DNA of 32,000 nucleotides from Chlamydiota bacterium (lineage in GTDB: Bacteria > Auribacterota > JACPWU01), in contig JACPWU010000011.1 in NCBI GenBank assembly GCA_016196885.1, positions 60,001-92,000 of the forward strand, in the 5' to 3' direction. The notes beneath the pieces are model-generated. The model was given only the letters and a program-made list of their open reading frames with translations, was not told where the DNA came from and searched no databases. The position numbers and the translations under genes are program-made. Below, piece by piece: positions 3,693-30,876 of this stretch (its first letter is position 1; each line of letters begins with the position of its first letter).

Positions 3693-3794
3693 CGTACATC
3701 GAACATCGTACATCGAACACCGTACATCGTACTTCGAACACCGCAAAAAGCAAGCCAACGTTCGAAGTACGATGTACGACGTACGGATGTTCAG
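3693..3794. repeat. Word-repeat hairpin W3, homologous to W2, between argC and argJ
   Basis: Stem CGTACATCGTACTTCGAAC / GTTCGAAGTACGATGTACG around the same loop AAAAAGCAAGCCAACG (3745-3760). It fills nearly the whole 114-nt gap between the argC stop and the argJ RBS. Confidence 0.8.
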
Positions 3795-3796
3795 TA

Positions 3797-4813
3797 TTAT
3801 AAAAGTCCCATCGTCTCCGCAAGCCCACACATCAAATTCATATTCTGAACAGCCTGACCTGAAGCCCCCTTCACCATGTTATCAATGACAGAGATCACAA
3901 TCACGCGATTCGTTCTCTCATCCACTTGAAGTCCAATATCACAGAAATTAGAACCGTAGACATTTTTCGTCTGCGGATAGTTTCCAAGAGGCAGGACTCG
4001 AATGAAGGGTTCATTTTGATAAAATTTTTGATAGGCCTCTACTAAATTCTCTGTTTTTACCTTCTTGGCAAGAAAGGCGTACATCGTTGACAAAATTCCT
4101 TTTTCAAGGGGAATAAGATGCGGCACAAAAGTCACATGGATGTTGGCGCTTGTGAAATTCTTAAGGACCTGTTCGATTTCCGGCGTATGCTGATGCACCG
4201 CAATTTTATACGCCTTCATATTCTCATAAACTTCAACAAAATGTGTTCCCAAACTCAGGCCTCTTCCCGCACCACTCACCCCTGACTTCGCATCTATGAC
4301 AATGCCCTGAGGATCTATGAATCCACCCTTCAATGCCGGGACCAGTCCTAAAGAGGCGGCCGTCGGATAACAACCCGGATTTGAGACAAACGTGGCCTTT
4401 TTAATTTTATCCCGAAAAATTTCGCTAAGGCCATAAACAGCCTTCGAAAGATTCTCAACATCCTCATGAGGATGTTGATACCAAGTCTCATAGAGGGAAG
4501 CGCTCAAGCGGTAATCCCCACTTAAATCAATCACCCGCGTCCCTTGAGCCAAAAAAACTTTGGCCACTTTCATGGAAACCGTGTGAGGCAATGCCAAAAA
4601 AACAAAATCTAAAGTACCTTTTGGGGGAAGCTGATCTACAGGTTGGCACAGCACAGAAATTTTTGAGCGCAACTCTGGATAAACATCCGCGATGGATTGA
4701 TTCGCATATTGCTCGGATGTCAGAAAAGCAATCTGGACTTTGGGGTGGTGCAACAAGATTCTGATCAATTCACGACCGCTGTATCCCGTCGCCCCGCAAA
4801 TACCTATTTTCAT
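3797..4813 (-). CDS. argC: N-acetyl-gamma-glutamyl-phosphate reductase
   Basis: 338 aa with an N-terminal Rossmann motif (GICGATGYSG) and the catalytic Cys region (SNPGCYPTA). Confidence 0.93.
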   Translation of the reverse strand: MKIGICGATGYSGRELIRILLHHPKVQIAFLTSEQYANQSIADVYPELRSKISVLCQPVDQLPPKGTLDFVFLALPHTVSMKVAKVFLAQGTRVIDLSGDYRLSASLYETWYQHPHEDVENLSKAVYGLSEIFRDKIKKATFVSNPGCYPTAASLGLVPALKGGFIDPQGIVIDAKSGVSGAGRGLSLGTHFVEVYENMKAYKIAVHQHTPEIEQVLKNFTSANIHVTFVPHLIPLEKGILSTMYAFLAKKVKTENLVEAYQKFYQNEPFIRVLPLGNYPQTKNVYGSNFCDIGLQVDERTNRVIVISVIDNMVKGASGQAVQNMNLMCGLAETMGLL

Positions 4814-6083: not shown

Positions 6084-6124
6084 ATCTCTGGTTAGATCAT
6101 TCTTAGCCGTCTCTTGCTTGAACC

Positions 6125-6308
6125 TAGCCCGCATTTCTCATCACATTTCTGCTACGAGCGCCGATTCCGCCTCGTCTCTCCGTGCAGACTCGGTCGGCCA
6201 CGCTCAACATACTGTAAAGTATGCCTCGCATGGCCTTGGTCGTCTTCCTCGCATCCAAAGCGGACTCAGGCGTTCCTCGCGACGAAATCTGATGAGAAAT
6301 GCGGGCTA
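6125..6308 (+). mobile_element. MITE family H, copy 1 (180 bp plus flanking TA/TA)
   Basis: Perfect 20-bp terminal inverted repeats, counting the flanking TA (CTAGCCCGCATTTCTCATCA / TGATGAGAAATGCGGGCTAG). TA dinucleotides flank both ends. Nearly identical second copy at 15280-15465. Confidence 0.85.
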
Positions 6309-6321
6309 GCTCAAAATATCC

Positions 6322-9294: not shown

Positions 9295-10149
9295 GGCATT
9301 TTCGACTCCGGCATCGGAGGGCTGACTGTTTTTTCACAAATCGCCAAACTTCTGCCTTATCAAAACCTTATTTATCTAGGGGATACGGCCCGCCTCCCCT
9401 ATGGAACCAAATCCAAAGAAACGATCGAGCGATTTAGTTGGGAAGATGCCCAATTCCTTTTGCAACAGGACATTCAATTAATGGTCGCAGCCTGTAACAC
9501 GGTGAGCGCCCTGGCCCTCCCCTTTCTCCAGAAAAATCTTTCCATCCCTATTTTGGGCGTCATTGAACCCGCCGTTGAAAAGGCCCTCACCCTATCAAAG
9601 ACGAGTAAAATCGGTGTGATTGGAACCCGGGCCACCATTGAAAGCAAAACATATGAAAAAACTTTTCGAGTCTTAAATCCATCTGTTCAAGTCTGGTCTA
9701 GCGCCTGCCCTCTTTTCGTGCCCTTGGTGGAAGAAAATTGGATGGAAGAGGGTGAATCCTTTTCCATTGCTCAAAAATATTTAAACCCCCTCATCGAACA
9801 CAAAATAGATACGCTCATCCTGGGATGCACGCATTATCCCCTTTTAAGGACAGTGATTCAAAAAATCATGGGTCCAGAAATCATGCTGATCGATTCAGCT
9901 GAAGCAACTGCGCTTGAGTGCGTTAAGATTATTCAAGATCTTGAAGCGAGCCCCAGAGAGATTCCCCAACATCAATTCTTTGTCACAGATGAACCTACAC
10001 GTTTCAGAAGAATGGGAGAAAAGTTCTTGGGCTATCCGATCCCTGAAGTCAAACATGCAGATTTATCAACAATTTACAATCAACGAACGACGATCAACGA
10101 ACCACATGTTCTTATAGTCCCTGTGGGACGAACAGCGGCTTTCCCATGA
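9244..10149 (+). CDS. murI: Glutamate racemase
   Basis: IGIFDSGIGGLTV, ACNT and GCTHYP active-site motifs. At 301 aa it is longer than usual because both termini read through repeats (see findings). Confidence 0.88.
   Translation: MDDSRLTTHDSRQTKSIGIFDSGIGGLTVFSQIAKLLPYQNLIYLGDTARLPYGTKSKETIERFSWEDAQFLLQQDIQLMVAACNTVSALALPFLQKNLSIPILGVIEPAVEKALTLSKTSKIGVIGTRATIESKTYEKTFRVLNPSVQVWSSACPLFVPLVEENWMEEGESFSIAQKYLNPLIEHKIDTLILGCTHYPLLRTVIQKIMGPEIMLIDSAEATALECVKIIQDLEASPREIPQHQFFVTDEPTRFRRMGEKFLGYPIPEVKHADLSTIYNQRTTINEPHVLIVPVGRTAAFP
10105..10129 (+). repeat. Y micro-element copy 1 (CATGTTCTTATAGTCCC-TGT-GGGAC)
   Basis: Shares CATGTTYTTATAGTCCC plus a short GC hairpin with the copies at 20794-20819 and 30818-30841, all in the same orientation. 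Confidence 0.6.
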
Positions 10150-11237
10150 TCGCACAAAGAATGTCCCACATGGATTCTTCCGGCATACGCAAAATTTTTG
10201 ATTTGGCTAAAAACATGAAAAATCCCGTGAATTTAAGCATTGGCCAACCCGATTTTGACGTTCCGTCCCAGATTAAAAATGAAGCGATTCACTGGATTCA
10301 AAAGGGGTTCAATCAATACACCGTCACTCAAGGAATTCCTGAACTAAGGGAAAAATTGCTTGAGAAGTTAAAAAGGGAACGGGGCATTGAAGCCGAAGAT
10401 ATTTTGATCACCTCGGGTGTTTCAGGCGGTATTTTCCTTGCCTTCATGGCACTTTTAAATCCAGGCGATGAAGTCATTGTGCCAGACCCCTATTTTGCCA
10501 TGTACAAACACCTTTCTCATTTAATGGGGGCCTCTCCTGTTTACATAGATACTTACCCCGAATTTATTTTAACCGCCGAAAAAATTTCTGAAAAAATTTC
10601 TAAAAAAACAAAATTAATTTTAATCAACAGCCCTTCGAACCCAACAGGGGTTGTGACACCCCAGAGAGAACTTAAAAAAATTGTGGAATTGGCTAAGAAA
10701 CATCACCTTGTCATTTTATCGGACGAAATTTATTCTGAATTTTCTTATGACGAGCCCTTTCAAAGCATCGGCCGAGATTACCCTTTGACGCTAGTCCTGG
10801 ATGGATTTTCAAAAACCTTCGCAATGACTGGATGGCGGCTGGGTTTTACAGCGGGCCCCAAAGAAATCATTCAGGCCATGACCCGATTGCAGCAATTTTC
10901 ATTTGTCTGCGCCCCTTCTTTCGCACAAAAAGCTGCCCTGAAGGCCCTGGATTGTGATATGAAAGGCCCTATTCAAGAATATCGAAGGAAGCGGGATCTT
11001 ATTTACGAAGGCCTTAAAGAAAAATTTAAACTTACGCGACCCGGTGGCGCCTTTTATTTATTTCCTCAAGCCCCCGACCCAGACGGGGATGTATTTGTTC
11101 AAAAAGCCCTTGAGAAAAATCTTCTCATCATTCCGGGCAGTGTTTTCTCTGAAAGAAAAACCCATTTTCGCATTTCCTTTGCAGCCCCCAACGAAACCTT
11201 GGCAAAAGGAATTGAAATCTTAAATCAGATGGTGTAG
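10146..11237 (+). CDS. Class I/II PLP-dependent aminotransferase (aspartate aminotransferase-like)
   Basis: 363 aa with the PLP-lysine motif SKTFAMTGWRLGF and NSPSNPTG. Its ATGA overlaps the murI stop. Confidence 0.88.
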   Translation: MIAQRMSHMDSSGIRKIFDLAKNMKNPVNLSIGQPDFDVPSQIKNEAIHWIQKGFNQYTVTQGIPELREKLLEKLKRERGIEAEDILITSGVSGGIFLAFMALLNPGDEVIVPDPYFAMYKHLSHLMGASPVYIDTYPEFILTAEKISEKISKKTKLILINSPSNPTGVVTPQRELKKIVELAKKHHLVILSDEIYSEFSYDEPFQSIGRDYPLTLVLDGFSKTFAMTGWRLGFTAGPKEIIQAMTRLQQFSFVCAPSFAQKAALKALDCDMKGPIQEYRRKRDLIYEGLKEKFKLTRPGGAFYLFPQAPDPDGDVFVQKALEKNLLIIPGSVFSERKTHFRISFAAPNETLAKGIEILNQMV

Positions 11238-11245
11238 GTTGAACC

Positions 11246-11439
11246 GATCCAGTTTTTAAAAGTGTGTCCTTTATTCATGCGGGTGACGCCCAACGGGGTC
11301 CCCATCAAGCGTCAGCAGGTCGAGTCATTCGCATCAGCTATACATCTGGCATCCCTCATCGAGACCGATGCCGTTGATGGGGTGATTGGGCGGCAGGACC
11401 CGCCCCCTTTCCAAAGGACACACTTTTAAATACATCATC
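11246..11439 (+). mobile_element. T-MITE carrying S-element copy S1 (core 11279-11403)
   Basis: ~24-bp imperfect (19/24) TIRs, GATCCAGTTTTTAAAAGTGTGTCC and its complement GGACACACTTTTAAATACATCATC. Flanked by the 8-bp direct repeat GTTGAACC (11238-11245 and 11440-11447). Confidence 0.85.
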
Positions 11440-11475
11440 GTTGAACCTTCATGGGCCATTCACGGAAGGAACGTT

Positions 11476-12877: not shown

Positions 12878-13024
12878 GAAAATGGAATTCGACGCAACAT
12901 CTTGGCCATCTTGACCTTCAGAAAGCCTCGACAGACACCTGTCAGTGTATGCCTACGTTTTCTTCAGGTCAATCTGGCTCAAGCTGTTGCGTCTCGGTTC
13001 TCATTTCCTATCTCTGTCCTTGGG
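12861..13024 (+). mobile_element. MITE family M, copy 1 (164 bp)
   Basis: TIRs CCCAAGAACAGAGATAGGAAAATG / CATTTCCTATCTCTGTCCTTGGG, flanked by the 5-bp direct repeat TTTCT (12856-12860 and 13025-13029). An inverted homologous copy lies at 30691-30876. Confidence 0.85.
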
Positions 13025-13094
13025 TTTCTAGTCATTTTTTCATCTTTTTTGTGCTACATTGTATCTGACAGTGTAAGCTCCATATTCTTTTACC

Positions 13095-15251: not shown

Positions 15252-15278
15252 CCTCCCCTCTTAAATTAAGAGGGGAGG
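15252..15278. repeat. Perfect palindrome CCTCCCCTCTTAA-A-TTAAGAGGGGAGG
   Basis: 13-nt arms around a single central base. It abuts the TA target of MITE H copy 2. Confidence 0.8.
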
Positions 15279-15279
15279 C

Positions 15280-15465
15280 TAGCCCGCATTTCTCATCACA
15301 TTTCTGCTGCTCTTCTCCGATTCCGCCTCGTCTCTCCGTGCAGACTCGGTCGGCCACGCTCAACATACTGTAAAGTATGCCTCGCATGGCCTCGGTCGTG
15401 CAACCTCCCCTCCAAAGCGGACTCAGGCGTTCCTCGCGACGAAATCTGATGAGAAATGCGGGTTA
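15280..15465 (+). mobile_element. MITE family H, copy 2 (182 bp plus flanking TA/TA)
   Basis: Same TIRs and core as 6125-6308, with two short divergent internal patches. Flanked by TA at 15280-15281 and 15464-15465. Lies between tRNA-His and tRNA-Arg. Confidence 0.85.
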
Positions 15466-15801: not shown

Positions 15802-15805
15802 TTTC

Positions 15806-15898
15806 CAATTTTAGATTTTAGATTGCGGATTTTAGATTAAAAAGGTGTTCATCTAAAAATTCCGCAATCCCCAATCTAAAATCTAAAACCCGCAATTG
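15806..15898. repeat. Word-repeat hairpin W9 (TTTTAGA/GCGGAT words)
   Basis: CAATTTTAGATTTTAGATTGCGGATTTTAGATT, an AAAAAGGTGTTC loop, then a complementary arm. Near-identical copy at 15981-16055 and a half copy at 20661-20695. Confidence 0.85.
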
Positions 15899-15977: not shown

Positions 15978-15980
15978 TTA

Positions 15981-16055
15981 TCAATTTTAGATTTTAGATT
16001 GCGGATTTTAGATTAAAAAGGTGTTCATCTAAAAATTCCGCAATCCCAAAATCTA
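15981..16055. repeat. Word-repeat hairpin W10 (copy of W9)
   Basis: Near-identical to 15806-15898. It begins 4 nt from the 5' end of tRNA-Arg(TCT). Confidence 0.85.
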
Positions 16056-17838: not shown

Positions 17839-17973
17839 AAGAAGTGGGTGGCCCGACTGGAGGTCCCCCATCGAGCGCCAGCAGACGTCGCCTACAACTC
17901 CCAAAGCCATACCTAAGGCTCATCCGACGTCGATGCCATCGATGGGGGTGAGGAGGGACAGGACCCACTTCTT
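17839..17973 (+). repeat. S-element copy S2
   Basis: AAGAAGTGGGT-GGCCCGACTGGAGGTCCCCCATCGAGCGCCAGCAG...GATGCCATCGATGGGGGTGAGGAGGGACAGG-ACCCACTTCTT. Begins 6 nt past the acs stop codon. Confidence 0.85.
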
Positions 17974-17979
17974 TTACCC

Positions 17980-19971
17980 TCACAACTTTCTTCCCTTAAC
18001 CAAGGTATCCACCACCGATGGATCGGCCAAAGTCGAAGTGTCCCCTAAATTGCCAATATCCCCTTGCGCAATTTTTCTTAAGATGCGACGCATGATTTTT
18101 CCAGACCTTGTTTTAGGAAGGCCTTCATTGAATTGTATTTGATCTGGCTTGGCAATGGGGCTGATTTCTTTTCTGACATGAGAAATGAGTTCTTTTTCAA
18201 GTTTTTCAGAAGGAGAAAACCCTTTTTTCAAGGTCACAAAACAATAAATCCCCTGCCCTTTAATCTCATGGGGAAAACCTACGACGGCCGTCTCCGCAAC
18301 CGCCTCATGAGAGACCAAAACATGCTCCACTTCAGCCGTGCTGATGCGATGACCCGACACATTGATCACATCGTCAATGCGACCCTGAAGCCAATAAAAG
18401 CCGTCCTCATCTATTTTACAGCCATCCCCTGTAAAATAATTTCCAGGAAACTGAGAAAAATAAATTTTTTGAATGCCTTCATTTTTAGAATCCCCATAAA
18501 CCCCTCTCAGCATCCCTGGCCACGGACGTGTAATAACCAAAGATCCTTTTTCATCAGCGGAGGCCTTTGTCCCATCTGCTCTAAAAACTTCAGGAACAAT
18601 CCCAAAAAAAGGTTTCGAGGTAGAACCTGGTTTCATGGGTATCGCACCTGCCAAAGGAGCAATCATAATCCCGCCCGTCTCCGTTTGCCACCACGTGTCC
18701 AGGACCGGACACCGTTCTTTGCCAATCACACGGTAATACCATAACCAGGCCGCAGGATTGATCGGCTCTCCCACACTGCCCAGAATCCTCAAAGACGAAA
18801 GATCATGTTTATGGGGCCATTCATCGCCCAGTCGCATCAACGCGCGAATCGCTGTGGGGGCCGTATAAAAAATGCTGACCTTTTCATCTGCAATGATTTT
18901 CCAGAAACGGTCGGGTTCAGGATACGTGGGAATCCCCTCAAACATCAGCACCGTCGCCCCGTTGGAAAGAGGGCCATAAATCACATACGAGTGCCCTGTG
19001 ATCCAACCAATATCAGCTGTACACCAGAATAAATCTTTATCTTTGACATCAAAAATCCATTTAAATGTTAAATGGACATAAAGGAGATACCCTGCTGTCG
19101 TGTGAAGCACACCTTTGGGTTTTCCGGTTGAACCACTGGTATAGAGAATAAAAAGAGGATCTTCTGAATCCATTTTTTCAGGAGGGCAAACAGGATGAAT
19201 ATCTGAACGCCTCATTTCTTCATGCCACCCTAGGTCTCGTCCCAATTTCATCAAGCAATCGCCCTTCCCTCGCCGGAATACAAGAACCTTTTGAACGCCG
19301 GGACATTCTTTCAGAGCCTCATCCACCTTACCTTTTAAATCAATCACCTTTCCTCCATGAAAGCCCACATCGCAAGTGACAACCACTTTTGAATCACAAT
19401 CCAAAATCCGGCCTTTTAAGGATTCCGCGCTGAAAGCCGAGAAAACAACCGAATGAATCGCACCCATTCTCGCACAAGCCAACACTGCAATCGCAAGCTC
19501 TGGAACCATCGGCATAAAAAGAGTGACACGATCGCCACGGCCCACACCATTTTTTTTCAAGACATTTGCAAAACGGCAAACTTCTTCATAAAGCTCTTGA
19601 TAAGTCAGTGTCCGTCTTTCGCCTTCCTTCTCGCCCACCCAGACAAGTGCTTTTTTATTCTTCTTCCAAGTTGAAACATGACGGTCCAAACAATTGTAGG
19701 AAGCATTGAGTTTCCCTCCGACAAAAAATTGACAATAGGGCGCTTCTCTCTGGCCAATCGTTTTGAAATCATACGCCATCACCGGGTCCCATTTCTCAAA
19801 CCATGAAAGATGCTCCTGGGCTTCTCTCGCCCAGAAATTTTCAGGATCCTTGATCGATTGCTCGTACAGGCGTTCGTATTCTTTTAAATTTTTAATGTAG
19901 GCTTTTTCACTTAAAGCTTGAGGAGGGTAAAAAACTGCATCTTCTTTCAAGGCGTGAGTCTGCTTCAACAC
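17980..19971 (-). CDS. acs: Acetyl-CoA synthetase (AMP-forming)
   Basis: 663 aa with YTSGSTGKPKG, the WWQTETGG region and a C-terminal PKTRSGKIMRR. GTG start preceded by GGAGGTG. Confidence 0.95.
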   Translation of the reverse strand: MLKQTHALKEDAVFYPPQALSEKAYIKNLKEYERLYEQSIKDPENFWAREAQEHLSWFEKWDPVMAYDFKTIGQREAPYCQFFVGGKLNASYNCLDRHVSTWKKNKKALVWVGEKEGERRTLTYQELYEEVCRFANVLKKNGVGRGDRVTLFMPMVPELAIAVLACARMGAIHSVVFSAFSAESLKGRILDCDSKVVVTCDVGFHGGKVIDLKGKVDEALKECPGVQKVLVFRRGKGDCLMKLGRDLGWHEEMRRSDIHPVCPPEKMDSEDPLFILYTSGSTGKPKGVLHTTAGYLLYVHLTFKWIFDVKDKDLFWCTADIGWITGHSYVIYGPLSNGATVLMFEGIPTYPEPDRFWKIIADEKVSIFYTAPTAIRALMRLGDEWPHKHDLSSLRILGSVGEPINPAAWLWYYRVIGKERCPVLDTWWQTETGGIMIAPLAGAIPMKPGSTSKPFFGIVPEVFRADGTKASADEKGSLVITRPWPGMLRGVYGDSKNEGIQKIYFSQFPGNYFTGDGCKIDEDGFYWLQGRIDDVINVSGHRISTAEVEHVLVSHEAVAETAVVGFPHEIKGQGIYCFVTLKKGFSPSEKLEKELISHVRKEISPIAKPDQIQFNEGLPKTRSGKIMRRILRKIAQGDIGNLGDTSTLADPSVVDTLVKGRKL

Positions 19972-20656: not shown

Positions 20657-20660
20657 TGTT

Positions 20661-20695
20661 TCAATTTTAGATTTTGGATTGCGGATTTTAGATTA
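20661..20695. repeat. Half copy (left arm only) of the W9/W10 element, immediately 5' of tRNA-Pro
   Basis: CAATTTTAGATTTTGGATTGCGGATTTTAGATTA with no complementary arm following. Confidence 0.75.
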
Positions 20696-20793
20696 AGAAC
20701 TTAAAACATAATGTCTGAACTACAATCAAAAATCAAGCCCCCATTTTCAGTCATGGATCGTCAATTTTTCAAAGTTTTTGCTTTTACCCACGA

Positions 20794-20819
20794 CATGTTT
20801 TTATAGTCCCCGCGGGACT
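20794..20819 (+). repeat. Y micro-element copy 2 (CATGTTTTTATAGTCCC-CGC-GGGACT)
   Basis: Same motif as 10105-10129 and 30818-30841. Lies 7 nt from the stop of the FAD oxidoreductase gene. Confidence 0.6.
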
Positions 20820-22098: not shown

Positions 22099-22800
22099 CT
22101 AAAAAATCCACAGGCTGAGACGATAAGGGAAATGCCTTCTGACCTCATAATTTTTAAATCCGTTACTCTTCATCAGGGTCTTTAATTCCTGAACCGTAAA
22201 GGCTCTTAAAATAGAGATCGCCCCATCATTTCTCGTCATGGCATGAAAACACATCACTCCAGATAAAATCTGATAGAACCCGTATGGAATCCAGGCTCGA
22301 AGTAAATCATTGATCAAGACGCCACAACGAGAAAGCGAAAGCATTTTCTTTAAAATAGGAATGGCCTGATCAGGACTTAAATGGTGTAAAAAAAGAGAGG
22401 AAATACAAAAATCAAATTTTTGCTCTGACTCTTTTAAATCAAAAACATCTTGAATCTGTACTGAAATTTCTGGATAAAGAGCGGCATTCCGCTTGGCCAT
22501 TTTCACCATTCTTGGATTTTTATCAAGAGCCAAAATCGAGACTTGATATGGATTCTTTCGTGCCCATTTTATAATTTGAATAGGAATATCTCCCGATCCT
22601 GTTCCCACATCCAAAATAGAAAATTTTTTAAGCCCTCGTTTTTGAATTTCTCTTTCCAAATTCTTTAAAATAACTCGCGTTCCACCCAACCAGCAATTAA
22701 TCCATTGAAGATTTTTGAGCGTCTTCTCAAGATCCTCTTCTGTGTAATCATCCCCATCCATCCATTCTGGATCATGACTTTGTTTTGGTACAAATTTCAT
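22099..22800 (-). CDS. Class I SAM-dependent methyltransferase
   Basis: 233 aa with the SAM motif I ILDVGTGSGDI and a downstream acidic LALDKN. Confidence 0.85.
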   Translation of the reverse strand: MKFVPKQSHDPEWMDGDDYTEEDLEKTLKNLQWINCWLGGTRVILKNLEREIQKRGLKKFSILDVGTGSGDIPIQIIKWARKNPYQVSILALDKNPRMVKMAKRNAALYPEISVQIQDVFDLKESEQKFDFCISSLFLHHLSPDQAIPILKKMLSLSRCGVLINDLLRAWIPYGFYQILSGVMCFHAMTRNDGAISILRAFTVQELKTLMKSNGFKNYEVRRHFPYRLSLWIF

Positions 22801-22802
22801 AT

Positions 22803-22945
22803 TAATTTCAATGATCCTTCGAGATCATCGTGTGTGATGAAAGTCCTTCCCATCATGCTTTTTTTGTAGTCGCCCGATTCATCGGGCAGCCCCATAAATG
22901 GGGCGACTACAGAATGAGCTTCACTTTCATAGCAAGAATACTCAT
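22803..22945 (+). repeat. REPIN-like element R1 (inverted REP doublet, core 22866-22910)
   Basis: GTAGTCGCCCGATTCATCGGGC faces the inverted GCCCCATAAATGGGGCGACTAC. Each half is a GTAG head plus a GC palindrome. The flanking arms are conserved with the copy at 26803-27072. Confidence 0.75.
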
Positions 22946-22947
22946 AA

Positions 22948-23088
22948 AAATAGAAATTGGGTGGCCCAACTGGGGGTCCCCCATCGAGCGTCAGCAGGTC
23001 GAGACAAAAACCTAACACTCGATCAAGAACATTAACGAGACCGATGCCGTCGATGGGGGTAAGTTGGGACAGGACCCAATTTCTATTT
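22948..23088 (+). repeat. S-element copy S3
   Basis: 15-bp outer stem AAATAGAAATTGGGT/ACCCAATTTCTATTT encloses the conserved S blocks. Ends 6 nt from the PKS stop codon. Confidence 0.85.
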
Positions 23089-26768: not shown

Positions 26769-26802
26769 TTCGTCTAAAAAAGTCGTTCTTATAAAAATAT
26801 CA

Positions 26803-27072
26803 ATTTTAATAATCTTTCGAGATCATCGTGTGTGATGAAAGTTCTCTCCATCGTGTTTTTTGTAGTCGCCCGATTCATCGGGCAATCCATGCAAGGGGCA
26901 CACGGCAGCCCCATACTAAGGAGGCCATATTCCCACCCTACATGGGTCATCTCTTTAACGATGCAGTTTTGAGCCTCCTTGTCCTTAGTACTGTCAGAAT
27001 TGAGTGGATAAAACTTAATGAACTGACTTGTAAATGGGGCGACTACAAAATGAGCCTCACTTGCATAACAAA
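26803..27072 (+). repeat. REPIN-like element R2, with ~115-nt insertion in the second REP loop
   Basis: Same flanks and REP heads as R1 (core 26862-27046). Extra 23 nt between the REPs and about 115 nt (26916-27030) inside the GCCCCAT..ATGGGGC loop. Confidence 0.75.
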
Positions 27073-27074
27073 AA

Positions 27075-29483
27075 TTAAATAATCTCCAAATAAAATTCCT
27101 TTGCCGAATTTCGATAAGAAATCAAATAGCCCATTTCAGTTGCTGCAAATTCTTGTTCTTTCCCGTTTAAAAGCACTTTCTGAGGCGTCTGTGGCATGCT
27201 GAATAAAAATTCCCCCTTAAGACCGGGCAAACCTTGAAGGGTCAGCGCTACTTTTCCTTCCTCAACTTGCGTTCCTAAAAGCTCAGAAGTCGCATAAAGA
27301 ATTTTCAATCTTGAATTTGGAACACTCCAATCGATTGGAAAAATCTGACCCGATGTTCCTGGAATAGCCAAACGTTTTTTTGACGGAATACGAACTTTCT
27401 TTCCTTGAATCAAAATTTCAATCACCATTTCTTTTTCTACCGGATGAAAATTTAAAACAAATAAAAACGAACCCGCAGGGCCTTTGCGGAGATGACAAAC
27501 CACATCAGGCTCATCGCAAGTGACTTGAGGAAGAACACCCCCTTGATCCAGAAAGGCCTTAAAAACATCCAGATGCTCCGCAATTTGATAATTTGGAAGC
27601 GTTCCCAAAATGGTGGCTTTACCTTTCCCAATTTTTTTCTCAATCCCACAAACTTTCCCAGCAATTTTTGCTACAGGGCTCGCATTGTTTCCGTTAAAAA
27701 TCGTCATGAGCGGGAATGAATTGACCCCTTCATGGTCAAAAAACTGGACCTTTGTTTCTGTGGGACAAAAAAGAGAATCTCCTGTGACACCTAAGCCCTG
27801 GCGTAAAATCTCACAAGGGCGTCCTTCCAAATCTACTTTTGGCAAGGTGGGATAAAAAATGGCCTTCCCTCCCTGATTCAAGAACTCTAGAACTTTCTCT
27901 TGGGTTTTAGCGTCCATCATTTCCAAAGACATAATCCAAATCTGACGATATTTTAGAAGCTGCTCTATAGACTCCTTTTGAAGATCTGGAATCTCTGGAT
28001 TGTAGCTCATCATGTAAAGCGTTTTGATCAAGCCATCAAAATAAAAAGCATCTCTCAACCATTTATAGTCATAGGTCAAGCCTACTTTTTCTGATCTAAA
28101 ATATTTATCTTTCAAGAAAAGCGGATAGAAAAATTCTGTCTCGTAATAGGGTTTATAAAATGGAACAGCGACTGCCGTTTCTTTCTTTGCCGGAACTAAA
28201 TTTGACTCATTGGCTCGAATCCAGCGGTTTAAATCTTCTATGGTTTCATAAAGAGGCATTTCTTTTGCCTTCACATCAAGAGGCGTGTCCCAATAAAACA
28301 TGGGACCGTAGACGCCTTCCCCAGGAGGATTTTTCCCCTGAGAAAACATATAATAATTCCAACCTTGCGTTCCATACGCGAGTGCTGATTTATAAAAAAG
28401 TCCAAGTTGATTCGGATACGTTCTCACACAATGCTCACGCGACCCCGCCTGAAACTCTGCAGAATAAATCGGCAAATCAGCGCCCTGAATCGAACGCGTC
28501 ATTTCTGTAATTACACCCGCGTCATGAAAATTTCTAAAATCTACATTTTCAGGAATGTGATCCAGCCCCAGCAAAAGATCTGGCCTTTGCTCGGCCACAT
28601 CGGCATAAAGCGTTACGCAGACGGGAAATTCATTTGCCCGGCCATACACCCAACCGGGGACGTTTTCATAAAAGGGAGTTTCTACTCCGCGCTTGCGAAG
28701 ATCATCCATTAAATGGCGTAAATAAACGGAATAATACCAGCGATGAAATTCATGCCAATCCCGATAACGGGCCATGTCCTCTGGCTTTTCTGTATTGCCC
28801 GAGGGAGGAATCACTTGCTCAAAGGACGCATACTCTTTGCGATACAATTGATTTAAGGCAGCAAGGGTCTGATATTTCTCTTTCAAAAATTGATAATAAT
28901 ATTTGAGCGTTGCAGGATTATAATCCCCGCAGCCGGCCAGCCAATGTTGAAGTCCGACTTCATTGCAAATCTGCGTCATCACCACAGGCCCATTTTTACT
29001 CACTTGGCGATCACGAATCACAGGAATAATCTGGTCAAACCACTTGGCCGCATATTCCAAAAAGAGAGGATGCATGAGAGAACACACAAAAGGAATATAC
29101 GGCTGGCCTTGAGGATTCTGAACTTGCACTTCGGGATGGCGATTTAAAAACCAACGCGGAATTCCTTGATCTTGGTACTCGGCCAAAATATAGGGGCCCG
29201 GTTTTACCACTACATCCAGGCCCGACTTCCCGCAAAGATCGATGAACCCAATAATATCCTTTTCAGGACCAGTCTTACCTTCTAAATCAAAACTTCCCTC
29301 TTTCGTCTCATGCCAAGACCATGGGATGTACGTCGTAACTGCATTCAAGTGGGCCTTCTTCATTTTCTCCAAATGCTTCGGCCAATCCTTCTTTTGGACT
29401 CGAAAATAATGCATCTCCCCGGAAAGCATAAAAAAAGGGGCCCCTTCCTTCTTAAAACCTTCTTGTGTCAATTCAAAGCGCAT
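27075..29483 (-). CDS. GH35-family beta-galactosidase
   Basis: 802 aa. N-terminal GEMHYFRV....W...L.KMK.AHLNAV.TYIPW..HE is the GH35 catalytic-domain signature. AGGAG RBS. Confidence 0.85.
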   Translation of the reverse strand: MRFELTQEGFKKEGAPFFMLSGEMHYFRVQKKDWPKHLEKMKKAHLNAVTTYIPWSWHETKEGSFDLEGKTGPEKDIIGFIDLCGKSGLDVVVKPGPYILAEYQDQGIPRWFLNRHPEVQVQNPQGQPYIPFVCSLMHPLFLEYAAKWFDQIIPVIRDRQVSKNGPVVMTQICNEVGLQHWLAGCGDYNPATLKYYYQFLKEKYQTLAALNQLYRKEYASFEQVIPPSGNTEKPEDMARYRDWHEFHRWYYSVYLRHLMDDLRKRGVETPFYENVPGWVYGRANEFPVCVTLYADVAEQRPDLLLGLDHIPENVDFRNFHDAGVITEMTRSIQGADLPIYSAEFQAGSREHCVRTYPNQLGLFYKSALAYGTQGWNYYMFSQGKNPPGEGVYGPMFYWDTPLDVKAKEMPLYETIEDLNRWIRANESNLVPAKKETAVAVPFYKPYYETEFFYPLFLKDKYFRSEKVGLTYDYKWLRDAFYFDGLIKTLYMMSYNPEIPDLQKESIEQLLKYRQIWIMSLEMMDAKTQEKVLEFLNQGGKAIFYPTLPKVDLEGRPCEILRQGLGVTGDSLFCPTETKVQFFDHEGVNSFPLMTIFNGNNASPVAKIAGKVCGIEKKIGKGKATILGTLPNYQIAEHLDVFKAFLDQGGVLPQVTCDEPDVVCHLRKGPAGSFLFVLNFHPVEKEMVIEILIQGKKVRIPSKKRLAIPGTSGQIFPIDWSVPNSRLKILYATSELLGTQVEEGKVALTLQGLPGLKGEFLFSMPQTPQKVLLNGKEQEFAATEMGYLISYRNSAKEFYLEII

Positions 29484-29508: not shown

Positions 29509-29655
29509 GCGGGTGGCCCGACTGGGGGTCCCCCACCAGCGTCAGCAGGTAGAGGTCTGAATTTTTACATCCCATCAACAAACAAACCCGACACCGACCC
29601 CACAGGGGCTATAACCTCTGTGCCGCTGGTGGGGGTGAGGAGGGACAGGACCCGC
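29509..29655 (+). repeat. S-element copy S4
   Basis: GCGGGTGGCCCGACTGGGGGTCCCCCACCAGCGTCAGCAGG...GCCGCTGGTGGGGGTGAGGAGGGACAGGACCCGC. Begins 26 nt upstream of the GH35 ATG. Confidence 0.85.
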
Positions 29656-29712: not shown

Positions 29713-29738
29713 GGGAGAAGTAGACCCCAAGGGTAGAC

Positions 29739-29997
29739 GATGCTGTATTTAAAAGTGTGTCCTTTTAAGAGGAGGCGGGTCCTGTCCCTCCTCACCCAGC
29801 AAAGGAGGCCCGCTGCCTGTGGCAGAGGAAGGGCCGACTGCGGTAGTAGATGTTTTTTTACCTTGTACTGCGTCGGCATCGGTCTCGGTTTGGTTCTTGA
29901 AGAGTCATTTTCAAGTCTCGACCTGCTGGCGATCAGCGGGGGACCCCCAGTCGGGCCACCCGCATCAATAAAAGGACACACTTTTAAATACACGATC
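29739..29997 (-). mobile_element. T-MITE carrying S-element copy S5 (core 29775-29963, inverted; longer centre)
   Basis: TIRs GATGCTGTATTTAAAAGTGTGTCC / GGACACACTTTTAAATACACGATC, flanked by the 8-bp direct repeat GGGTAGAC (29731-29738 and 29998-30005). Confidence 0.88.
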
Positions 29998-30033
29998 GGG
30001 TAGACCTAAAATCCAATTTAGGATTTTGGAATT

Positions 30034-30677: not shown

Positions 30678-30690
30678 GGGAGAAAGAGAA

Positions 30691-30876
30691 CCCAAGGACA
30701 GAGATAGAAAATGAGAACTCAAGAGCGACAGGTTGGCTCAGATGGACTTGAAGAAAACTCGAGGCATACCTGCAAGGTATGTCGAGATTTTCTGAAAGTT
30801 CAGATGGGTCAAGATGTCATGTTTTTATAGTCCCCAGGGGATGCGTCGAATTCCATTTTCTATCTCTGTCCTTGGG
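30691..30876 (-). mobile_element. MITE family M, copy 2 (186 bp, inverted relative to copy 1)
   Basis: TIRs CCCAAGGACAGAGATAGAAAATG / CATTTTCTATCTCTGTCCTTGGG, flanked by the 5-bp direct repeat GAGAA (30686-30690 and 30877-30881). Contains the 24-nt Y insertion. Confidence 0.85.

Follow-up and report, generated by a model that had tools for sequence, protein, structure and literature searches.

The repeat analysed here, which we call S, probably represents a new family of small, GC-rich, non-autonomous palindromic mobile elements in which each strand forms one long imperfect hairpin (we put the probability of this reading at roughly 0.7), and nothing that is seen requires it to have a host function. 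S is multi-copy, its copies are distributed as insertions are, some of them reside in frame within protein-coding genes, and their pairing is conserved. The basic unit of the family is a mini form of about 78 nt, and the copies in the window (the whole 32,000-nt stretch of DNA that was analysed, from a MAG labelled Chlamydiae) share its arms, between which lies an enlarged centre that diverges quickly. As a family S appears to be new, and the kind of element to which it would belong, small palindromic mobile repeats, is already known; what is unusual in S is an asymmetric fold that is strictly conserved across very different hosts, the presence of two size classes, and the occupation of one site in opposite orientations.

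A preliminary description of this DNA had listed five S copies that share a 5' and a 3' block around a variable centre, and block and pattern scans run against shuffled sequences found all five copies and both blocks. The 5' block, GGGTGGCCCGACTGGGGGTCCCCC, has four matches with at most three mismatches (at 17846, 22959 and 29511 on the + strand and at 29938-29961 on the - strand) where 0 were expected; the 3' block also has four window matches with at most three mismatches against an expectation of 0 (none in shuffles), and a degenerate pattern that covers all copies, including the diverged S1, has five matches in the window and 0 in shuffles. The palindrome GGGGGTCCCCC was likewise confirmed in the sequence. 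A sixth copy, S6 (L059:2774-2896), lies 7 kb past the right end of the window, and the copy density is thus 6 per ~52 kb of source genome read. All six source-genome copies are intergenic, and each is a long imperfect hairpin whose two arms of ~45 nt form imperfect inverted repeats, the bulges being fixed. The earlier statement that the two blocks are not reverse complements of each other had to be corrected, since they are inverted repeats made imperfect by conserved bulges and not unrelated sequences. The parts of the fold are, in order, helix P1 (GGGT/ACCC), an unpaired GG, helix P2 (CCCGACT/AGGAGGG, with tandem G.A), a 5' bulge GGGGG(T/A), the variable helix P3 and a 3' bulge ACAGG; in the window copies, which are 123-189 nt in size, the enlarged centre holds an extra helix (GGTC/GACC, GACG/CGTC or GATG/CATC). 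The window copies and their parts are as follows.

S1 core, 11279-11403, + strand: the most diverged copy, with P2 CGCCCAA/TTGGGCG and P3 CCCCATCAA/TTGATGGGG.
S1 long form, 11235-11452, + strand: outer arms at 11245-11272 and 11413-11440, 28 nt, 86% complementary.
S2, 17839-17973, + strand: core at 17844-17968, with copy-specific complementary flanks AAGAAGT/ACTTCTT.
S3, 22948-23088, + strand: the copy on which the preliminary description was centred; core at 22957-23079, scoring 133.9 bits with covariance model R1 and E 3.9e-12 with covariance model R2.
S3 flanks, 22948-22958 (AAATAGAAATT) and 23078-23088 (AATTTCTATTT): 11 nt, copy-specific and perfectly complementary.
S3 5' arm, 22959-22982, + strand: GGGT, GG, CCCAACT (P2), bulge GGGGGT and the start of P3.
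S3 3' arm, 23055-23077, + strand: the end of P3, TA, AGTTGGG (P2), bulge ACAGG and ACCC.
S4, 29509-29655, + strand: P3 CCCCCACCAGC/GCTGGTGGGGG.
S5 core, 29775-29963, - strand: the sole - strand copy, with an internal insertion of ~70 nt after GACCGATGCCG.
S5 long form, 29729-30008, - strand: outer arms at 29738-29767 and 29969-29998, 30 nt, 93% complementary.

The long form, which comprises S1, S5 and S6, has the additional outer arms TTTAAAAGTGTGTCCTTT / AAAGGACACACTTTTAAA, and these reach further out in S1 and S5. In S1 both P2 and P3 have been rewritten yet are still paired, and in S5 the ~70-nt insertion displaces the 3' strand of P3. The genes of the window are ordinary chromosomal ones (arginine biosynthesis, RNase PH, acs, type III PKS, GH94 and GH35). 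Its acetyl-CoA synthetase has 100% identity to a protein that NCBI lists under a "Chlamydiae bacterium" MAG, and the analysis placed the window on contig JACOUD010000035.1 of GCA_016178005.1. S2 occupies nearly the whole gap between acs, whose stop codon (17980-17982) is 6 nt away, and PMT_2, whose ATG (17835-17833) is 3 nt away, and is antisense to both; S4 lies 25 nt upstream of the start of the GH35 gene (29483, - strand), to which it is antisense; and S6 lies between ubiD and a BrnT gene.

Pairing within S is kept by compensatory changes, as had been claimed. Every helix string in the preliminary description is present at the copy to which it was assigned, and all are exact reverse complements except GGTCGAG/CTCGATC in S3, which has one G-T pair. 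In a six-copy MAFFT alignment 91% of cells are paired and 13 of 31 pairs show two-sided changes, a result reached by 0 of 500 shuffles and far above that of a control in which the partner was slid by 1-3 columns (only 32-48% paired). Across 16 distinct copies of both sizes 87.7% of cells are paired, with two-sided changes in 15 of 25 pairs (0/500 shuffles); this alignment was fitted to the covariance model, which favours structure, and MAFFT-based counts agree with it. The S3 G-T pair had been taken to work only on the + strand, as G-U. The pair is there, and it is too little to assign a strand. Neither strand folds better than the other: the mean sense-minus-antisense difference in folding energy is 0, which offers no basis for choosing between them.

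The bulges GG, GGGGG(T/A), TG and ACAGG persist in every lineage. DNA-level pairing processes do not explain conserved bulges, and something selects for asymmetry; the simplest candidate is recognition by a copying enzyme. Two aberrant mini copies were seen as well, a 40-nt remnant at L079:3499-3538 in which only P1 and P2 are kept (AGGGGTGGCCCGACTGGGGGTAAGGAGGGACAGGACCCCG) and a copy at L066:572-687 with an extra hairpin inside its 5' bulge; these indicate that bulge and loop tolerate large indels, whereas the arms do not.

Complementarity also extends beyond the element. There are copy-specific complementary flanks of 7 nt at S2 and 11 nt at S3, and in the metagenome copy L078 the flanks are complementary over 13 perfect nt inside gatA coding sequence; the flanks of copies in mnmA and of L067 are complementary over shorter or interrupted stretches, and at about half of the copies such complementarity is absent. 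Five mini copies share the junctions G/AGGGGT and ACCCCG/A (the slash marking the boundary), and others have complementary flanks. S may prefer the centre of small palindromes as its target; alternatively, the stem may extend after insertion by arm-to-arm templated copying at replication, and quasi-palindrome correction is an established mutational route. Because the complementarity reaches into host flanks, DNA-level processes can create paired changes here, and because those flanks are unique host sequence, covariation alone is no proof of a selected RNA fold. The preliminary description had asked whether the covariation exceeds what arm-to-arm conversion would produce; it is strong, and since the pairing runs into host flanks it does not imply RNA function. 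We draw from this the more general caution that even strong covariation in a palindromic repeat does not show RNA function.

Comparison with relatives and with other assemblies bears directly on whether S inserts. In L062 (GCA_964640155.1), a syntenic relative with the same gene order, the gap between acs and PMT_2 measures 19 nt and that between the PKS and methyltransferase genes 3 nt, and it is these gaps that contain S2 and S3 in the window; when 58 kb from three relatives were scanned with a covariance model of S, no copy was found. Two short-read contigs, Logan contig L057 (in S4) and L089, terminate within an S copy. The genes that flank S are unrelated to each other (acs, PKS, GH35, RNase PH, nfo, ruvA, serS, rplK and groEL), and orientation is mixed, with the source-genome copies 2 sense and 4 antisense to flanking genes and about 9 sense versus 9 antisense to transcription over all events. 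No consistent direct repeat that would mark a target-site duplication, and no conserved flank, was found around the 6 source-genome and 14 metagenome copies, and no transposase or other candidate enzyme was found in the 52 kb of source genome read or beside any mini copy. The gene gaps of the source MAG are crowded with at least five repeat families, and in L062 the same pairs of genes overlap or are separated by 3-19 nt; this crowding points to a lineage-specific bloom of small repeats.

The mini form was found in metagenomes by a scan with the 3' arm, which gave 18 loci, 14 of which match the S model over its full length. It is ~78 nt long and consists of AGGGGTGGCCCGACTGGGG(A/G)CCC, a variable helix of 8-10 bp, a loop such as GCGGAAGTAATCTGAGC, and GGGGTGAGGAGGGACAGGACCCCG. 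A covariance model built from mini forms only (R2) recovers S2, S3, S4 and S6 at E ~1e-12 and S1 at 3.9e-05, and the relationship is therefore independent of the window sequences. Those mini samples that were identified are groundwater (the record groundwater.metagenome, the OBEQ01 set and the Hain-H41/H51 records, Hainich being a groundwater observatory). S is GC-rich, though the genomes that carry it are of moderate GC content. L064, L070 and L081 share one core although their contexts are unrelated (upstream of nfo, upstream of ruvA and within mpg). The intergenic minis L064, L066, L069, L070, L076/L082 and L079 lie in the sense orientation relative to the gene downstream and stop 5-16 nt short of its ATG, and the ratio of sense to antisense among intergenic minis is 6:1; the spacer has no other Shine-Dalgarno sequence, and the 3' arm contains GAGGAGG. 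In L082 the gene caller had stretched serS to 468 aa through the mini element. Repeats of this kind interrupt short-read assemblies and are a source of spurious peptides or extended gene starts in annotation.

Other searches set the bounds of this distribution. tblastn of window-genome proteins against the mini loci found no shared genes; a metagenome scan with a 5'-arm pattern that fits all six source-genome copies gave no match; and a scan with the 5' arm of a genome collection that does not contain the source genome gave 56 single chance matches, in high-GC genomes. Protein searches for S-derived ORFs (a concatenated six-frame query and a six-frame block profile) gave nothing at E <= 10, although the collection contains S-peptide proteins, the matches being of insufficient length to reach a score. 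When a mini copy was compared by BLAST with plasmids and with phages, no match was found, an IMG/VR scan gave none either, and a literature search by sequence strings returned immunoglobulin primers only.

Mini copies also lie inside four different genes, as listed here.

mnmA, in L071, L072 and L068 (three related organisms), antisense: 26 extra codons in L071/L072.
gatA, L065:1522-1601, sense.
gatA, L078:680-761, antisense: at the same codon position as in L065.
mpg, in L081, antisense.
mfd, in L073 and L074, antisense: a remnant of the 3' arm only.

These genic copies are in frame, and the Pfam domains continue through the insertions. When MnmA is aligned with PDB chain 2hma, the alignment is interrupted precisely where the S peptide lies (query 145-179 against chain 138-148); in GatA this peptide is not a simple addition, as it takes the place of most of a native segment. 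The two gatA orthologues, whose proteins are ~80% identical, carry S in opposite orientations at one site and so contain two entirely different 26-residue peptides, which reflects either inversion in place or two insertions at the same site; three samples of the L078 population showed no polymorphism there, all having one orientation. The antisense frames of S are mostly open (23 of 27, versus 11 of 27 for sense), which fits the antisense bias inside genes. Finally, elements of 78, 80 and 82 nt all keep the host frame, through changes in the flanks, which argues that the element is translated and not removed; self-splicing or excision of the genic copies was rejected on the same observation.

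These findings support one of the two possibilities raised in the preliminary description, that S is the core of a non-autonomous mobile element: it is multi-copy, missing from syntenic junctions, a breaking point of assemblies, present as identical minis in unrelated contexts, and in frame within genes in both orientations. Copies would be made in trans by an enzyme whose substrate is the folded single strand and which uses the conserved bulges to recognise it; we infer both this enzyme and the single-stranded intermediate. Recognition of the bulges would explain why the arms are near-invariant while P3 and the centre drift, which they would be free to do provided that pairing is kept. Insertion would leave no target duplication, and copies would survive only at harmless sites, that is in gene gaps or in permissive protein loops, with the antisense orientation, nearly free of stop codons, favoured inside genes. 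The stem would then grow into host flanks by templated arm-to-arm copying at replication, or else its extension would reflect a preference for small palindromic targets. In the Chlamydiae MAG a longer centre, quick to diverge and containing an extra helix, would have taken the place of the loop, and one sub-lineage would have gained the outer arms. Counted against a mobile reading are the lack of a candidate enzyme in the 52 kb read and beside the minis, the lack of a target-site duplication or conserved flank, arms more alike between hosts than is usual for selfish DNA, and the 6:1 sense bias of the intergenic minis.

In its behaviour, as distinct from its sequence (where no relation is expected), S is closest to the Rickettsia palindromic elements (RPE). 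RPE are small palindromic repeats of about 100-150 bp, many per genome, that lie between genes and in frame inside unrelated housekeeping genes and have no identified transposase (PMC10969869), and the presence of in-frame palindromic elements in essential genes has mostly been regarded as something peculiar to Rickettsia (PMC10969869). S, too, is a small palindrome in many copies (6 per ~52 kb) that is intergenic and, as minis, in frame in mnmA, gatA, mpg and mfd, and its peptide is read through at tolerated sites. It differs from RPE in occurring in a Chlamydiae MAG and in groundwater bacteria, not in Rickettsia; in a basic unit that is shorter (78 nt) and GC-rich within moderate-GC genomes; in that the source-genome copies are all intergenic, with in-frame copies seen only among the 78-nt relatives; in the conserved asymmetric bulges of its arms; and in its opposite orientations in gatA of two lineages. 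Since the host is labelled Chlamydiae and not Rickettsia, S is at most an analogue of RPE and not a member. The same behaviour is now seen in uncultured groundwater bacteria, where it is linked to a bloom of an enlarged form in the Chlamydiae MAG, and the compact 78-nt substrate, with its two fixed arms and fixed bulges, is usable in a hunt for the machinery that moves it.

Classical MITEs lie mostly at gene boundaries, and some are occasionally intragenic (PMC10969869, PMC2229807). S resembles MITEs such as Correia/NEMIS, ERIC, BOX and RUP in being non-autonomous, 80-200 nt long and bounded by inverted-repeat ends; it differs in having no target-site duplication and in that the whole element is one hairpin, not two terminal repeats around an unrelated core. 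We know of no parent insertion sequence with the same ends as S. Mobile hairpins that can sit in coding sequence and be translated are found in mitochondria, as the GC-rich palindromic clusters and double-hairpin elements of fungi and the coding palindromes of Nematomorpha. Those elements are organellar and have no sequence relation to S, which is bacterial and has a defined asymmetric fold.

Several other readings must be set against that of a mobile element. The preliminary description had alternatively proposed that S is a structured ncRNA or cis-regulatory element, that is, a small RNA or a cis element at gene boundaries that controls translation start or stabilises transcripts and whose fold is in use. 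The arms are indeed near-invariant across very different hosts while P3 covaries, the conserved unpaired purine bulges and tandem G.A suit the sense strand better than its complement, and the placement of six of seven intergenic minis in the sense direction close before an ATG, with GAGGAGG in the 3' arm, is what a translational element might show. However, the GGAGG would sit 17-28 nt from the ATG and is paired in P2, the two strands fold equally well, and the overall balance of orientations, the unrelated neighbours, the in-frame copies in four coding genes (in both orientations in gatA) and the empty orthologous junctions in relatives all speak against an RNA. Rfam, as that description had anticipated in recognising no named family, has no match to S: at gathering thresholds the window contains only 5 tRNAs, and an E-value search over S4/S5 and 13 mini loci gave nothing credible. 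We consider a functional RNA of this kind improbable. It is a somewhat different suggestion that the asymmetric fold of S is the substrate of an undescribed hairpin-recognising system, or an RNA module before start codons, and so is more than decaying selfish DNA. The near-identity of the arms between the Chlamydiae MAG and groundwater bacteria, which is unusual conservation for selfish DNA, could point to function in this way, and one possibility would be a cross-phylum mobilisation machinery that also flips S in place, as the gatA site might suggest; we regard this suggestion as unlikely. That the host uses the hairpin, whether as an intrinsic terminator or insulator or, in the manner of attC, for structure-specific recombination, is in our judgement very improbable. 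Copies do lie a few nt from stop codons (6 nt for S2 and S3, ~5 nt for S6, while the left end of the S1 long form overlaps the TAG stop of an aminotransferase gene at 11235-11237), and integron attC sites are variable-length imperfect palindromes, located just after stop codons, with a poorly conserved centre and extrahelical bases that make their strands non-equivalent. S shares the imperfect palindrome, variable length, poorly conserved centre, conserved extrahelical bases and nearness to stops, but it lacks R/L core sites (no GTTRRRY/RYYYAAC at its ends), its neighbours are syntenic housekeeping genes and not cassettes, and it lies in both orientations and inside coding sequences. As for termination, the transcribed strand of the upstream gene lacks a T run after the hairpin, and a scan for a terminator or promoter role showed no enrichment of terminator-like sites (28, versus 24.6 expected); this role was set aside.

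A more specific proposal is that S resembles REPINs or PATEs and travels as single-stranded DNA with the help of an HUH Y1 enzyme, either a RAYT or an IS200/IS605 TnpA, whose gene lies elsewhere in the genome. Like REPs and REPINs, S is a hairpin repeat without target duplication in which two-sided changes keep pairing, and those elements are thought to act as folded single strands; the S hairpin also has conserved extrahelical bases. Five of the six source-genome copies share a strand, in a region whose GC skew is negative throughout, but this 5:1 strand bias is not significant. A separate GTAG-tagged, REP-like palindrome family in the window hints that the genome may encode a RAYT, but no HUH gene was found in the 52 kb read and no RAYT is linked to S. 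Most REPs are defined by a GTAG or CGTC tag at one end (PMC3733652), whereas S ends in GGGT...ACCC or (A)GGGGT...ACCCC(G) without either tag, nor is it built as a pair of short REPs. The ends of IS200/IS605 elements have separate subterminal hairpins, which neither S arm forms; the sequence 5' of the copies contains no conserved tetra- or pentanucleotide; and REPs are extragenic whereas S minis lie inside four genes. We therefore hold movement by an enzyme of this class to be a doubtful form of mobility for S, and retain the broader reading of a new palindromic mobile family.

Several other repeats and features were noted in the window and its flanks. The GTAG-tagged palindrome (TTTTGTAGTCGCCCGATTCATCGGGC...GGGGCGACTACA), which resembles a classical REP, belongs to a repeated intergenic module at 22799-22939 and 26797-27075 with hairpins at 22857-22919 and 26858-27050, and the module directly adjoins S3. 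A second repeat family of ~187 nt is present at 6124-6310 and 15278-15465 in copies that are 95-99% identical; its termini form an inverted repeat of 26 nt (CTAGCCCGCATTTCTCATCACATTTC / GAAATCTGATGAGAAATGCGGGCTAG), and one copy lies beside a tRNA-His gene. The copy at 6124-6310 contains CTGATGAG, which raised the question of a hammerhead; Rfam gives no match, so that no hammerhead is recognisable in it. Between genes of the arginine biosynthesis cluster, at 2361-2449 and 3707-3798, there are repeated palindromes of the CGTACATCGTACTTCG type, an inverted pair of ~150 nt (12878-13026 on the + strand and 30689-30860 on the - strand, 81-86% identical) forms another repeat family, and three copies of CATGTTTTTATAGTCCCCGCGGGA lie in gene gaps (10105-10128, 20794-20817 and 30818-30841). 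Several toxin-antitoxin pairs are present in the flanks of the window at L059:3000-4002 and L058:16387-16826 (BrnT/CopG, an NTP_transf_2 gene and a ParE-like gene). A 41-nt motif, TTTTAGATTTTAGATTGCGGATTTTAGATTAAAAA, is found at 15803-15843, 15979-16019 and 20659-20699 in copies 93-100% identical, directly 5' of three - strand tRNA genes (two tRNA-Arg and one tRNA-Pro), and may be a shared tRNA promoter or leader.
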